Below the pieces are notes generated by a model. It was not told the DNA's origin, ran no database searches, and saw only the letters and a program-made list of their open reading frames with translations. Both the position numbers and the translations under genes were made by a program. Of a DNA stretch of 64,000 bases, positions 6,001 to 51,357 are shown one piece after another. The DNA comes from a virus (taxonomy: Duplodnaviria; Caudoviricetes). The DNA is taken from positions 7,901 through 71,900 of IMG/VR virus record IMGVR_UViG_3300037455_001046. One strand, 5' to 3'. Each line of letters starts with the position of its first letter. The first letter of the stretch is position 1.

Positions 6001-9000
6001 CTTATCGGCAAAAACGAGGACGGCGTCCCCGCCGCCCCCTTCGAGAAGAACTGGGCCGAGCTGTCGATGAAGCGGATGCTCCGCTACGCCGCCGAGAACG
6101 GCTACGACTATGTGGCCTGGACGACGGGAGAGCAGCAGGCGGAGAGATATAGCCTCGGAGAGGTTTTGTCTTCAGTAGACAAGACGGGCGACAATGATTA
6201 CACCCTGTACCTTACGAACGGAAAATCGACTGATATTGTTGTTGACGACGAGGGCGTCATTACGGGGACGGATGCCTTCAGCGAGGAATGGGGAGGTAAG
6301 CGGCTTTCGGAGGTAGTCGGAAAGGATCTCGCCGTTAAGATGATGTCAATGGAAGTCGATAGCGACGATCTTGAACATATCGATTCGAGAATCGGCGGCG
6401 AGGGCATGAAGGGCTTCTACGACGAGATTCTGCCCCGCTTCATGAACAAGTACGGCAAGCAGTGGGGTGTGAAGGTGGAAGACATCACGCTGCCCGATCT
6501 CGGATACGGCGGTATTACCGCCCACTCCGTTCCCGTCAACGAGGCGATGAAGGAGTCCGTGATGGAAGGCCAGCTGATGTTCTCGGTGTCCCAGCAGGAA
6601 CAGACTGACCGCGAGCGCCTGATCGACGCCGCCGAAAACGGCGGCCTGAAGGCCGTCATCGGCCCGGAGAATGTCGAGGACATCTACCGCGAGGCCTATG
6701 CCTCCATCCCCCAGAGCGCCCTGAAACCCATCGTGGAGAAAGGGCTCGCCGAGGGTGGCGACATCATGGGCCAGCTGCGAGTGTATCTGCACGACCTTGC
6801 GCTGAACGGCACGGAGAACGACGGCACGGGCCTCCTGTTCAAGCTCTTCGAGGACATCCGATACATGTCGAACAACCCTGCACTCACGGACAACGACATC
6901 CGCTGGATGCTCTGGAAGGAGACGTGGAGCGAAGACCCCGACAGCATCCTCGCCATCGCGGCCAACCGCGCCATGAGAAACCGCTGGGGCGTCGGCGAGC
7001 CGCCCGTGGAGCAGGATTTCAAGGAAGCTGCGGAAGACGCGCAGAAAGCGGCCGCAGAGCGCGTGGAAACGGCGAAAAACGACCTGAAAGAGGAGAAGAA
7101 AGGCCTCTACGGGCCGCTGGATTCCATCGCGAAGGCCATGGCCGCGCAGAAGACCTACGACAAGGCGACCGTGGACAGCATCGTCCGCTTCGCCAAGGAC
7201 ATCCTCAAGGGCGGAAACGTCAGCGAACTGAGCCGCAGAGAGGTGTCCCGGCTGCTCTCGCTCATCAACACCAGCACGGGCAAGAGCCCGAAGCAGGCCT
7301 CGCGCTATGCAGACCAGCTGGTGGAGATGCTCCTGAACCATATCGCCGAGGAGGAGAAGAAGAAATTCGAGAAACTCGTCAAGGTGAAGGCCAGCAAGGT
7401 CAAGGACAGCGGCGTCGAGGTGCAGGGCAAGCTCGACCTCGTCGGCCAGGCCGTCATCAAGGCCTTCCGCGAGAACATGGGCAGCCCCGTGGAGGACATC
7501 CGCACCCGCCTCGAGGAGGTGTCCGACCAAATCACCAGCGAGGACGACGCCGTCCGCGAGGGTGCCCTGGCCGAATACAGCGGCCTGATGCTGGCTCTCC
7601 AGTACAAGGAGGACATCGCGGAGAACATCGAGGAATACAAGGATCTCAAGAAGGAATTCGACGCCACCGGCGTGAAACTCGCCGACGTCATCGGGCGCAA
7701 GGCCTACGAAGAGTTCGTCAAGGAGTCGCGAGACGCCCTCCGCAAGAACCTGATGGAGCGCATTGATATGTATCGCGACCTCTCGAAGCGGCTGACCGAC
7801 ATCATCACGGGCAGCGCAGAGGCCGCCGCGGCCTTCCGCAAGGCCGAGCAGCAGCGCGTGGAGGAGATCCACCACGATGCGAACCGCGACATGAAGGGAA
7901 CGCCGTCGAACGAGCATCTGCGCGAGAATGCCTGGCAGCGGTTCCTGAACTCCGACTTCATCCGTTTCTTCTTCAAGTCGCTGTCCACGGCAGACCAGAT
8001 GTTCCGCCTCCTGGGCCGCAAGAGCGTGACCGGAGAGGGCTATCTCTTCAACCGCTTCATCAAGAACGGCTTCATCCCGGCCAGCGAGAAAGCCTCGCGC
8101 GGCATCCTCGAAGCCACGCAGATCCTCGACAAGAAGGTCAGCGAGGTATTCGGCAAGAAGGGGATGAGGTGGAGCGACCTGTACAAGGAGTCTCGCAAGA
8201 AGGGCGGCGAGGTGGAATTCCTCGACGGCGGCGAGATGAAGACGCACGACCTGACGCAGGGCAACCTCCTCTACATCTATATGGCCAACAAGATGCCGGA
8301 CGGCAAGATGAAGCTCCGCAAGATGGGCATCGGCGAGGACACCGTGGAGGAGATCAAGAAGAACCTCGACCCTCGCTTCATAGAGCTGGCCGACTGGCTC
8401 CAGGATGAGTTCTATGTGAACCTCCGCAACAAGTACAACGCCGTCCACGAACGGATGTTCGGTGCGCCGATGGCCGCCATCGAGGACTACGTCCCGTTGA
8501 AGATCCTGGCCAACGCCCGATTCGAGGACGTAGACCTCGGCGCGCAGACGCAGGGAGAGATGTCGTCCACCATCACGGGCAGCATCATCAAGCGCCGCAA
8601 GAACTCCCTCGCGCTGGACATCATGCACACCGACGCCTTCTCCCTGGCCATCGAGCACATCGAGCAGATGGAGGACTGGGCGGCCTTCGCCGAGCTCCGC
8701 CGCGATATGAACACCCTGCTTTCGTACAAGCACTTCCGCAACCAGGTGATGAATATGGACACCGTCTACGGCAGCGGCCGGACGCTCTGGAGTAACTTCT
8801 CCGACGCCTGCACCGTGCTGGTGGGCAAGTACCAGCCGAAGGTGAAGAAGGGTGACATCGACACCATTGCGCTGAACGTGGCCAAGGGCGTAACGGCTGC
8901 GAAGATCTCGTTCCGCGTGAACACCGCCCTCAAGCAGCTGCTCTCGTTCCCGGCGTATTTCTCGGATGCCCGCCCCGATCTCCTCGCGGCGAGCATCGGG

Positions 9001-47288: not shown

Positions 47289-47990
47289 ATGGAATGGAAA
47301 TACACCAAGGAGAACCCTCTCCGCGTGGTCACCCTCTGCTCCGGCTATGATAGCCAGCTGATGGCGATCCGCAACCTGGGCATCCCCTATGAGTGCGTCG
47401 GCTGGTCGGAGATCGACACCTACGCCATCCGCGCCCACAACGCCGTGTTCCCCGAACTCGCGGGAAAGAACCTCGGCGACATGACCAAGATAGACTGGGA
47501 CCTCGTCGATGACTTCGACCTCCTGTTCTACTCCACGCCCTGCACCGACTTTTCCAACGCGGGCAAGCAGGCAGGCGGAGAGGAGGGGAGCGGAACGCGC
47601 TCCTCGATCCTCTGGTGGACGCGCTACGCCGTCCAGAAGAAGAAGCCGAAATACCTCATCATGGAGAACGTCAAGGCGCTGGTCAGCGACAAATTCCGTC
47701 CGCTCTTCCACAAGTGGTGCGATGAGCTTCAATCTTACGGTTACACGAACTTCGCCCAGGTGCTGAACGCAAAGGACTACGGCATCCCGCAGAACAGGGA
47801 GCGCATCTTCGTGGTTTCCATCCTCGGCGACGCCTGGTTCAACTTCCCCCAGCCGTTCCCGCTCAAGCTCCGGCTCAAGGACATGCTGGAGGAGAAGGTC
47901 GACGAGAAATACTATCTCCCTCAGGACAAGGTAGACCAGTTCATCGAGCAGCTCGACGATGAAAAGAAGGCTCTCATCGAGGCCGATTAA
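47289..47990 (+). CDS. dcm: C5-cytosine DNA methyltransferase, N-terminal catalytic half (motifs I-VIII)
   Basis: LCSGYDSQ (motif I variant), STPCTDFS (IV), MENVKAL (VI), IPQNRERIF (VIII); stops before the TRD and motifs IX-X. Confidence 0.92.
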   Translation: MEWKYTKENPLRVVTLCSGYDSQLMAIRNLGIPYECVGWSEIDTYAIRAHNAVFPELAGKNLGDMTKIDWDLVDDFDLLFYSTPCTDFSNAGKQAGGEEGSGTRSSILWWTRYAVQKKKPKYLIMENVKALVSDKFRPLFHKWCDELQSYGYTNFAQVLNAKDYGIPQNRERIFVVSILGDAWFNFPQPFPLKLRLKDMLEEKVDEKYYLPQDKVDQFIEQLDDEKKALIEAD

Positions 47991-50528
47991 CACCACCCCG
48001 TCCGGCATGGCTTACGGGATCAAGGCGAACTATTTCAAGAACGCAAGCCTGACGACCCTCACAGGGGGGGGGGCATCACTTCCCCTGTACCGGCGTGATG
48101 GAGATTTATGAAGACGACTCCCCTCAACACGGACATTGACGGCAACGCCTCCACCATCCTGGCGGGATACTACAAGTACGGCGTGGCGACCTTGATGCTC
48201 GGCAACTACGGAACGAGCGGAACAATAATCCTTGAGGCATATGAAAGCCCTATCGGCGCGGAATCCGCAGAAGAACTACGGCAGGGCTGAGTGGAGCGAC
48301 ATCGCCGCCACCCTGCTGGCAACGGACTACAAAGCCCCCCCCCTGTGCCTGATCTATGAAGATTGTACCAATCAACACGACGGCTGACGGCTGCGCGTTC
48401 GCGATACGGACTGGGTATGAGCGCCACGCCTACCTCAATGGGATGACTCGGGGGGGGGGGCTTCTATCCGGCAACGGGAGTCCTGGAGGTCGAGGACGAT
48501 ACTCAACGCCTGTGCGGATGGGACTTGCAAGACGATATTCGCCCGGCTGGGACGGCTGAGTTGGGAGAACTACCTCGGTAGGCTGGAACACGGCGGCTGG
48601 GATTGCCAAATGACCTGCATTCTTGAAACCTATGAAGATTGACGACACCATCCTGAAGGTCCGATTTACGCGAAACCGTATCGAGGGAATCCTGAACTAT
48701 CCGTACATATTTCTCCCTCATACACCCTCCCGCCCATGTGTCTTCGACTCGTTCCACGGCACAATCGGATTCTACATTTTCCCTTTCGCAGTAACCACGC
48801 GGATCAACGCCAGCAACCAAGTATTCCTGAAGGTCTATGAAGACGTGGATGATCCCGCTCAAGGGCAAGGGGCATGAGGTCACGGCGCGGAACATCGCGC
48901 TGGGGGAGCCTATGGAACTCGCCCGGCCCTTGACCACGGACGAATGGGACAACGCATTGCTATATGAGAAACAAGAGGCTGATGTGGGTCACGGAGAAGG
49001 CCTTTAGGATGCGATTAGGGGGGGGGGCAGTACGAACTCGACGGATACAACCAGCAGGTGCTGACAGACGGGGTATCCTACGCCATCACGACCCGCACCT
49101 TCGGCGACAACAACCATTTCCTGCTGGAGGTAGATGAATGACTCGATAAGAATCCGCCAGGCCACGAAGAGGGGCTACATTGAAGTTCCACGGGGGGGGT
49201 GTTCGACGGGTCGTACCTTACAAGCAAGACACGCAGGGGCAGATACCAGAACGGCCTCTGCCCGACGCTGACCGCCGGGGAGCCGGAGATATACTACTAT
49301 GAAGGAATCGAAGAAGCCTGAAGGCCTGTGGTACAACGGGCGCTTCTGCCCGGTCTGGAGTTCGCTCCATTGGAATGCCACAACGGGCTTCTATAGGGGG
49401 GGGCTTAAAGACCTCGCGAGGGCATGCAAATGCGATGACTCGCTTGCAGTCGTAGTTGAATATGACACCGAAACTGATACGGATAGGTAACATTTACGGA
49501 TCACAATACGGCCCCTCATTCGCCGGCAATGTCTATAATCCGTCAGGCTTATCCCCGGCGATAATGACTATGCAGGGGGGGGGCAGAGAACCGATGATAG
49601 CGACCTATGAGGACGGACGAGACGATATGCCTCAACAGCAAGGTTGACGGGAAGCAGCCATCTCTTGCCGATCGGATATACTACGGGGGGGGGTGTATGA
49701 CGGCGATCACTACCGGCTGGCATCAGTATGTGCTTTATGAAGAAGATAATGGTCCGATACCCTCACGGGTACTATAGGGGGGGGGCATGGGAGAACGAGT
49801 ATTCACCGACCCTGACCACATCCGCCTGGGAGTTCAACAACTATGTCCTTGAGATTGATTGCCACGATGGTGATGACGCGGGAGCGGAGCGAGGAGGAGA
49901 AACGCCGTAGGCATCTCCACGGAGACCGCGGCGCGAAGTTCAGCAAGGGAAAGATTCCAAAGCTCGCCCCCCCCCCATATCATAGGAACGATAACCACTT
50001 TCATCACGAAGGACATCCTGATAGCGGAGATATATGATGATCGGTAACATCTACCCATCGAACGGCCAGAACGGCGAGATACACACCACGGGCGACTGCT
50101 CCCCGGCAATCATATCCGGGCAGGGCGTAAAGGGCAGAGGCATCGGAAGCTGCAACGCGCCGAAGATCATCCTATACGACGACTACAACCACAAGATTGC
50201 CCCCCCCTATGGGTCGGTACGGTAGTCCAGAACTTCGGCCGGTCCGCCTGGCGCAACGGCTGGAAACTGATAGAGATCTATGAAGGCGATGCAGAGGGTG
50301 GGCGACAGGGATAAGACCTGCTGGAGCGTCAAGGACATCGCGTTCACGATAACCGCCAACGCCCAGAGCAAGGTTCAGCTGATAGTTGACTATGAAACCG
50401 CAGATAATCCCGATCGGGATGATATGGAAGAGTGAGGCCAACGGCTGGGTGTATCATAGGGGGGGGGGCTCTCCCCGACCCTGTGCTGCGGCGCGCATAA
50501 CGGAGTACAACCAAAGATTAATGACAAT
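47959..50528 (+). other. Array of about 17 TRD-like mini-ORF cassettes between the two methyltransferase halves
   Basis: Cassette starts at 47959, 48108, 48241, 48356, (~48490, no ATG), 48632, 48837, 48964, 49134, 49299, 49462, 49607, 49737, ~49843, 50034, 50280 and 50392. Modules resemble C5-MTase variable-region units (IGNIY..G.VY...G.SP.I; RQATKRGY...KTRRGR...CPTL), most ending [ILV]xYE. Confidence 0.75.
48064..50468. repeat. Twelve poly-G/poly-C homopolymer tracts (8-11 nt)
   Basis: G10 48064, C9 48335, G11 48450, G10 49018, G8 49192, G8 49396, G9 49575, G9 49685, G9 49777, C10 49967, C8 50200, G10 50459. Confidence 0.9.
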
Positions 50529-50807
50529 ATGGCAAAGATTTATCGTATCAGGAAGCTCACTCCGCGCGAGTGCGGAAGACTTATGGGATGCAGTGATGCG
50601 GACCTTGATAGAATGATCCGCTACCCCTATCGGCCTGATGAAAACGGAGAGTGGACTCTACCGAAAGGCGTAGATGAACAGATGGCAAAAAAGATGAGAA
50701 TAAGTGAATCTCAACTTTATAAATGTTTCGGGAATAGCATTGTCGTTCAAGTCCTTGAAGGGATTTTCACTCAATTACTGAGGGCCGATGGAGACTGCCT
50801 TTTTTGA
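50529..50807 (+). CDS. C5-cytosine DNA methyltransferase, C-terminal part (motifs IX-X)
   Basis: RIRKLTPRECGRLMG (IX) and QLYKCFGNSIVVQVL (X). The same frame extends upstream to the G10 tract at 50459. Confidence 0.85.
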   Translation: MAKIYRIRKLTPRECGRLMGCSDADLDRMIRYPYRPDENGEWTLPKGVDEQMAKKMRISESQLYKCFGNSIVVQVLEGIFTQLLRADGDCLF

Positions 50808-51357
50808 AGAATGGAAAGACATAGCCGGTTTTGAGGGGGTATATCAGGTATCTACCCTCGGACGTGTCCGCTCATGTGATAGATACCTCCGAGCATGCCA
50901 CGGAGGCAGACAGTTTAAAAAAGGACAAATAATAAGTCCCAAACGAATGCGGAACGGCTACTTTACCGTCGGTCTAAGTTATAACGGTAGGGTTAAGCGC
51001 ATGTATATTCATAGGCTTGTGGCAACGGTTTTCTTGTCTAATCCGAATTCCTATCCAGAAATAAACCACAGGGATGAGGATAAAGGGAATAACCGCTTTG
51101 ACAACCTGGAATGGTGTTCTCATAGGTACAACATCAATTATGGTACGACCGCGAAGAGAATAAGCATATCCCACCTCAATGGTGGATATGGGAAAAAACC
51201 AGTTGCGCAGCTCAAAGATGGGGTAGAAGTCGCCAGATACGATAGCGCCGCAGATGCATCAAGAGCAACGGGCATTGACGCCTCCGCGATCCGAAAGGTA
51301 TGTTTATCTAAGGAAAAGCACAACACGGCTGGCGGGTTCAGGTGGGTCTCCGTTTAG
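50788..51357 (+). mobile_element. NUMOD4-HNH-NUMOD1 free-standing homing endonuclease
   Basis: EEWKDIAGFEGVYQVSTLGRVRS (NUMOD4), IHRLVA...NHRDEDKGNNRFDNLEWC (HNH), YDSAADASRATG (NUMOD1); low GC. Confidence 0.88.

Follow-up and report, generated by a model that had tools for sequence, protein, structure and literature searches.

A 64,000-nucleotide stretch of DNA from a virus of the Caudoviricetes (positions 7,901 to 71,900 of IMG/VR record IMGVR_UViG_3300037455_001046; hereafter the window) encodes a C5-cytosine DNA methyltransferase that comes in pieces: an N-terminal core with motifs I-VIII (N-core), an array of about 18 cassettes resembling target recognition domains (TRDs), most with their own start codons, and a C-terminal core with motifs IX-X (C-core). 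Twelve homopolymeric tracts of G or C are confined to the array. Similar tracts stand at orthologous sites in about 40 related phage arrays, and between near-identical genomes they change length in such a way that the same cassette is in frame in one and out of frame in the other. We consider it likely that these tracts are hypermutable contingency loci, placed by selection in Gly/Pro-rich loop codons of the TRD mini-genes of a split, multispecific phage methyltransferase.

Under this explanation, polymerase slippage (slipped-strand mispairing) during phage replication, a mechanism and a rate that we infer, would add or remove one G or C. The change in length would shift the second half of one TRD, including its T-L motif or its terminal strand, into or out of frame. 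The downstream ATG of the next cassette, together with an out-of-frame stop at or before the junction, would confine each switch to its own module. Provided that the mini-genes are translated, the set of TRDs in frame would decide which sequences the shared split core methylates, and one burst would contain genomes with different active TRD sets and different 5-methylcytosine (5mC) patterns. The phage population probably varies its methylated sequences and so hedges against host restriction. In particular, the benefit would lie in covering both hosts whose restriction enzymes demand protective methylation and hosts with methyl-dependent (Type IV) attack. A bolder form of the idea, which we hold tentatively and at somewhat below even chances, is that free-standing, interchangeable TRD subunits of 40-70 aa plug into the shared split core, as HsdS does for Type I enzymes. 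With a mutational switch on each subunit, the resulting methylome would be combinatorial, heritable and reversible, with up to thousands of states per population.

Twelve homopolymers in a split methyltransferase

A homopolymer scan of the window found 12 G/C runs of at least 7 (nine of G and three of C, with lengths of 8-11), all of them between positions 48064 and 50468. The longest G/C run outside the array is 6 (five cases), no A/T run longer than 7 occurs in the window, and the remaining 8 kb of the 71.9-kb virus record holds no such G/C runs. A model of independent, identically distributed bases with the window's composition predicts 4.4 runs of at least 8 per 64 kb and 0.17 per 2.4-kb stretch, against the 12 observed (Poisson P ~1e-18). 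Such clustering goes far beyond what chance would give, and elsewhere the genome avoids runs of this kind. An earlier reading of the window, made from its letters and open reading frames (ORFs) only (the sequence-only reading), had listed 12 runs of 8-11 in 2.4 kb and noticed none of 8 or more elsewhere. The scan recovers identical positions and finds none of even 7 elsewhere. The same reading had placed the runs mid-cassette at Gly-Gly or Pro-Pro codons, and this holds at all tracts: each encodes Gly-Gly(-Gly) or Pro-Pro(-Pro) within a cassette. All 12 are coding-region homopolymers above compositional expectation in length, a property of contingency loci built on simple-sequence repeats (SSRs).

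The codons used for these residues set the array apart. Its tracts are pure GGG or CCC throughout. Beyond the array, no Gly codon is used less than GGG (141 of 1158), Gly-Gly-Gly is never written with GGG only (0 of 23), Gly-Gly rarely is (2 of 120), and Pro-Pro is never CCCCCC (0 of 20); that is, GGG-only coding of Gly runs is limited to the array. The codon bias and the confinement point to selection for the homopolymers.

Frame states were taken from a manual three-frame map, with which a codon-usage frame predictor agreed at 12 of 12 window sites. A longest-open-frame heuristic, wrong at two of the 12 window tracts, was dropped as frame caller, and Viterbi frame segmentation of tract-free arrays was too noisy for use. 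Map and predictor both return the split given by the sequence-only reading, five tracts in frame and seven broken (four with one base too many and three with one too few). Its statement that a one-base change restores each broken module was likewise borne out (Table 1). In-frame tracts are mostly 9 long, which corresponds to three GGG or CCC codons.

Table 1. Methyltransferase parts and homopolymeric tracts in the window, with the corresponding positions in related loci (L numbers)
Feature	Positions	Strand	Evidence or frame state	Orthologous positions
N-core, C5-cytosine DNA methyltransferase motifs I-VIII	47289..47990	+	PF00145 E=4.7e-46, positions 2-214 of 324	
Array of about 18 diverged TRD-like cassettes, c01-c18	47959..50528	+	three-frame map, cassette table, junction profile, homology	
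C-core, motifs IX-X, own ATG	50529..50807	+	PF00145 E=3.3e-7, positions 273-323	
G10 in c01, Gly run after T-L-T motif	48064..48073	+	out, one base too many; in frame at G9	G9 plus CGG in L008; mixed Gly codons in L014
C9 in c03, Pro run	48335..48343	+	in frame	C8 in L011 and L004; C7, out of frame, in L045
G11 in c04	48450..48460	+	out, one base too many; in frame at G10	G8/G9 toggle in L058/L059; mixed codons, in frame, in L014
G10 in c08	49018..49027	+	out, one base too many; in frame at G9	G9 in L003; G8 vs TTG6 in L058/L059
G8 in c09	49192..49199	+	out, one base short; in frame at G9	written AGGAGGAG in L010; module in frame in single-chain L023 and L029
G8 in c10	49396..49403	+	in frame	G6 (out) vs G8 (in) in L058/L059
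G9 in c11	49575..49583	+	in frame	G9 (out) vs G8 (in) in L058/L059; G7, out of frame, in L005
G9 in c12	49685..49693	+	in frame	Ser-Ser-Glu-Gly at tract position in single-chain L102 (75% identity over 32 aa)
G9 in c13	49777..49785	+	in frame	G8 in L011; G9 in L008; interrupted, GGGGAGGG, in L006
C10 in c14	49967..49976	+	out, one base too many; in frame at C9	C8 in L011
C8 in c16	50200..50207	+	out, one base short; in frame at C9 (call assumes upstream part read in the c15 frame, as codon usage indicates)	equivalent position of c16 type: G9 in L012; mixed codons in L014
G10 in c18, last cassette	50459..50468	+	out, one base short; in frame at G11 or G8	seven distinct c18-type orthologues: in frame in two (L054 G9, L059 G8), out in five

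The two PF00145 matches supply the complete set of core motifs, with the N-core ORF making up the N-terminal two-thirds of the enzyme, and the cassettes lie between motifs VIII and IX, where tandem TRDs are expected of a multispecific enzyme. Unlike such an enzyme, the locus is not a single polypeptide. A stop follows the N-core, and a +1 step occurs at nearly every junction, also in the related locus L014. The cassettes, 40-70 residues each, are read in changing frames across 2.5 kb and share a layout: an S/T-P-T-L/I-like motif, Gly-rich loops and a hydrophobic terminal strand ending in Tyr-Glu-Asp. Four of them (c02, c09, c11 and c12) have counterparts among the in-frame fused modules of single-chain relatives. 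L029, L102, L023, L115 and the uncultured human-gut phage MT835567 carry homologous modules in frame between the core halves. A natural in-frame fusion of last cassette and C-core (L059:5422-5832) can be aligned with M.MpeI across its TRD, motif IX and motif X (E=1.3e-5), and with M.HhaI at residues 224-287, with the Gly run directly before the conserved T-L motif. Judged by homology and layout, the cassettes are genuine TRD modules, most of them, besides c02, c09, c11, c12 and the c18 type, being assigned by shared layout only. A search for longer proteins containing c13 found no candidates.

The pattern extends well beyond the window. An N-core search of viral and metagenome contigs yielded 118 loci, and wherever N-core identity is at least 55%, the order of N-core, array and C-core is unchanged. 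Counted over non-redundant arrays, G/C runs of at least 8 number 201 in 62.6 kb, or 3.2 per kb; the flanks, 289 kb in all, have 34 (at most 0.12 per kb, some of the 34 being miscounted array bases of truncated loci). Orthologous tracts span G7-G12, and some orthologues are interrupted or of mixed codons and in frame. Among the N-core matches, from which records very close to the window may have been missing, there is no near-identical strain of the window (the best has 85% nucleotide identity). Cultured phages offer no close N-core relative; the best match in that comparison (65% identity) comes from a human-gut phage, itself uncultured, whose multi-TRD gene is ordinary, in frame and free of tracts.

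Length polymorphism and selection on out-of-frame halves

Three near-identical locus pairs, the members of each from different metagenome assemblies, reveal how the tracts change. All indels between members fall in tracts: G8/G9, G6/G8 and G9/G8 in L058/L059 (99.7% identity over 3.1 kb), G9/G8 in L064/L067 (99.8% over 3.0 kb), and G9/G10 and C10/C9 in L003/L118 (96%). At each of these six differences the cassette is in frame in one member and out of frame in the other. Tract length thus differs between close genomes with conserved flanks, and the frame toggles while the out-of-frame (OFF) part stays intact, two further properties of SSR contingency loci. The ON/OFF switches proposed by the sequence-only reading gain support from these six flips, and the comparison of related genomes that it had called for shows polymorphic lengths with the same cassette flipped in and out.

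The OFF half does not look decayed. Downstream of the tract at which L003 is out of frame (C10) and L118 in frame (C9), the two differ at 20 of 108 nt. Nineteen of these differences fall at third codon positions of the TRD frame, and there is one amino-acid change, which places the OFF half of L003 under purifying selection. Such conservation fits reversible switching. The same 20 differences (L003:4701-4819 against L118:730-847) are clustered, with only a few in the 700 nt upstream, which suggests cassette-sized recombination between diverged lineages.

Mixed Gly or Pro codons in homologues had been named by the sequence-only reading as an observation that would speak against switching. Most orthologues keep the homopolymer, in line with a switch. 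The exceptions are a minority, mixed and in frame (L014, and c06 of the window itself, opposite a C10 in L003), and they look like locked-ON variants of the tract and not like a refutation of it.

Separate cassette starts and competing explanations

The typical junction reads (T/G/A)ATGA, its ATG lying +1 to the terminal Tyr-Glu (TAT GAA) of the previous cassette and usually opening with Met-Lys, and the upstream frame stops 0-33 codons past the junction. An ATG start is present in 15 of the 18 window cassettes, and one more may use TTG. The end of the N-core is built like the cassette junctions, with its TAA stop 32 nt past the ATG of the first cassette. In a profile of 230 junctions, TATGA is invariant and follows period-3 hydrophobic codons. 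In related arrays TATGA outnumbers TACGA by 301:78, despite a genome-wide preference for TAC among Tyr codons (TAC:TAT of 439:253), so the junction ATG is under selection. The tract-free locus L014 has the same +1 chain, and every examined cassette in it is an intact small ORF. Since each cassette begins at its own ATG, in the frame +1 to its predecessor, no switch should depend on another; the separate ATGs make such switching plausible. In addition, the unshifted frame of c01, c08 and c14, each with one base too many and without an earlier stop, ends exactly at the TGA of the following ATGA junction, so that the next cassette can still start.

Other features of the junctions were also considered. 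Quadruplet decoding or +1 frameshifting by a phage tRNA was rejected, as the 71.9-kb record holds no tRNA or Rfam family. The junction profile contains no slippery or stop context, and the only Shine-Dalgarno-like signal at junctions is a weak GAGG at -7 to -4, too near the ATG to count. The c15/c16 boundary (50172-50183) is the sole TAC junction and the sole one without a frame step; on its sequence it is a natural example of two fused modules. At the other end of the array, the C-core Met, 5-6 residues before R-K-L-T-P (50517-50531), is kept in eight of 10 relatives that have an array and in none of the single-chain relatives. This suggests that the C-core is also made alone, independent of the last tract.

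One cassette complicates the count of states. Cassette c05 (in the region 48450-48640) lacks its own start codon both in the window and in the 70%-identical L059 (L059:3230-3400), and the third frame is open from the 48450 G tract into it. This tract may therefore give three outcomes: c04 complete, the N-terminal half of c04 fused to c05, or a truncated product. A c05-type cassette in L008 sits after another cassette and has its own ATG. The figure of 2^12 specificity states in the sequence-only reading can stand as an upper bound only, and at least one tract may depart from two states.

An alternative that we judge unlikely allows only the last cassette a function. When fused in frame to the C-core, in the manner of the M.AquI beta chain, this cassette would be the only one ever to work with the N-core; the internal cassettes would form an unexpressed reservoir, which recombination would bring into the expressed position or exchange between phages, and the runs would mainly provide shared microhomology for half-cassette recombination. 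An N-core plus a TRD joined to motifs IX-X is the sole architecture with precedent (PMC3404938), and L054, L059, L006 and L014 have their last cassette in frame with the C-core. Exchange of cassettes is also apparent, as array length ranges from 0.8 to 3.0 kb among relatives and cassette order and content vary. For example, a c08-like cassette stands ahead of a c01-like one in L008 (L008:6758-6997), unlike the window order (48064, 49018). Of 24 BLAST matches touching window tracts (against L003, L004, L005 and L008), seven start or end exactly at the tract, so cassette halves may differ in history and tracts may be recombination joints between TRD halves. The clustered synonymous divergence of the L003/L118 cassette between near-identical flanks would suit such a reservoir as well. 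On the other hand, all internal cassettes keep an open frame outside the tract, their start codons are selected (the TAT bias), and GGG-only coding is as strong in them as in the last cassette. There is no associated recombinase and there are no inverted repeats, the HNH gene downstream of the C-core is not linked to arrays, and the 8-bp junction is short for homologous recombination.

That HNH gene is an ORF with NUMOD4 and HNH_3 matches, resembling a homing endonuclease (50788-51357), which overlaps the C-core end by 20 nt. Its homologue occurs at the equivalent place only in L003, and the other arrays lack it; it therefore looks like a sporadic mobile insertion and not a part of the system. 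As a candidate cassette recombinase it was rejected for the same distribution.

A quite improbable alternative places the slippage in expression instead of in replication. The tracts would be programmed sites at which RNA polymerase or the ribosome slips, giving a fixed mix of full-length and truncated products at any DNA tract length, a rheostat and not a heritable switch. Long homopolymers can cause transcriptional slippage. The 94 confidently called tracts of at least 8 divide into 40 in frame, 31 at +1 and 23 at -1, and the 54 out of frame in the consensus would be tolerable if read-through were routine. Of seven last cassettes of the c18 type, five are out of frame. However, a state that varies between orthologues in this way is not a fixed programmed frameshift. 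More generally, DNA tract lengths change between near-identical genomes, all three frame states are found at orthologous sites, unlike the one conserved offset of a recoding site, and no stimulatory element was seen at the tracts. Bacterial RNA polymerase slippage is documented mainly on A/T runs.

It is very improbable that sequencing or assembly has merely misjudged the lengths of homopolymers that do exist, all cassettes being in frame in the phage. Homopolymers of 8-11 are error-prone, near-identical assemblies differ in indels only at tracts, as errors would, and a G17 run stands at a contig end of L004. However, the 57% of tracts found out of frame greatly exceed any consensus error rate, orthologous sites that have contracted to G5-G7 are frameshifted too, other long window ORFs are intact (one of 3498 aa), and the homopolymers, codon bias and TRD confinement would still need the same explanation. 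The G17 run (L004:7972-7988) lies 27 nt from its contig end. Many related contigs end within arrays, and these ends look like assembly breakage at variable or low-complexity tracts.

Several points weigh against the contingency-locus explanation itself. We know of no free-standing TRD subunit for any C5-methyltransferase; a TRD of 40-70 aa untethered from the core may not function, and the same modules are covalently linked in single-chain relatives. Three window cassettes lack an ATG start. The arrays of L014, L081 and L086 have no tracts, so tracts are not required for an array to exist. On the technical side, the codon-usage frame predictor failed on the c18-type cassette, where motif-based calls were used, and a consensus error at a homopolymer might, in principle, account for unequal lengths between assemblies.

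Relation to known systems

Phase variation through homopolymers is familiar from bacteria, whereas its demonstration in phages is recent; normally one tract switches one gene. The window locus packs a dozen tracts, each of which would gate one recognition module, and dozens of uncultured phages share this layout. Should the modules act as separate subunits, C5-methyltransferases would have a new architecture. Counter-defence would then proceed by a population sampling many methylation patterns at once, with consequences for host range in dense communities. Being compact TRDs whose boundaries are defined, the cassettes would also make up a natural library for specificity mapping and methyltransferase engineering. 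Reads, methylome sequencing and simple expression constructs could put the system to a direct test.

The closest enzymes in kind are the multispecific C5-cytosine methyltransferases of Bacillus phages, namely M.SPRI, M.Phi3TI, M.Rho11sI and M.H2I (Wilke et al. 1988 EMBO J, PMC457134, as cited in PMC8936443). They share with the window a phage C5 core, tandem TRDs between motifs VIII and IX and a presumed anti-restriction role. They have 3-5 modules, whereas the window has about 18, as separate +1 cistrons between the parts of a split core, 12 of them with a homopolymer. Some relatives of the window phage carry the same modules in one polypeptide, as the Bacillus phage enzymes do.

Split enzymes are also known. 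In M.AquI and M.EcoHK31I the catalytic motifs lie on separate polypeptides that assemble. The break in M.AquI falls in the variable region, as in the window, and the small subunit of M.EcoHK31I supplies motif IX (PMC3404938). In the window the N-core is a separate ORF and the C-core also has its own ATG, and c18, when in frame, is fused to the C-core, which only some tract lengths allow (two of seven orthologues). Precedent for a multi-chain C5 enzyme is limited to these two, both of which have two fixed subunits, one specificity, no cassette array and no repeats (PMC3404938).

The switching mechanism has its own parallels. Bacterial methyltransferases phase-vary through SSRs in phasevarions, such as Type III mod and Type I hsd (PMC12707154, PMC11868660). 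Slipped-strand mispairing in homopolymers underlies such variation, and methylation that protects from one enzyme can sensitise to McrBC-type enzymes (PMC12707154). The sequence-only reading had drawn this comparison, and the coding homopolymer in a DNA-methylation gene, with frame turned on or off by slippage and, as proposed here, a heterogeneous population methylome, fits it. As phasevarion is a concept of host gene regulation, the comparison holds as an analogy only. Phasevarions have one tract per gene and switch a whole bacterial enzyme, the described consequence being host gene regulation, whereas the window has 12 tracts in 2.4 kb, with one specificity module each, in a phage enzyme.

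Phages, too, have contingency loci. Those in T2 agt and T4 rIIA have been experimentally shown in coliphages (Gomez, Barrick and Waters 2025, bioRxiv 10.1101/2025.10.21.683753), and poly-G tracts occur in receptor-binding proteins of Fletchervirus, a group of Campylobacter phages (bioRxiv 10.1101/2025.10.21.683753). The window would share with them homopolymer slippage in phage genes, reversible frameshift variants and bet-hedging against host defence. These loci are single tracts in ordinary genes, and no TRD arrays or combinatorial module switching are described for them (bioRxiv 10.1101/2025.10.21.683753). A literature search found no published description of TRD cassette arrays with homopolymers. 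The proposed system extends SSR phase variation to the single modules of a phage methyltransferase that is both split and multispecific.

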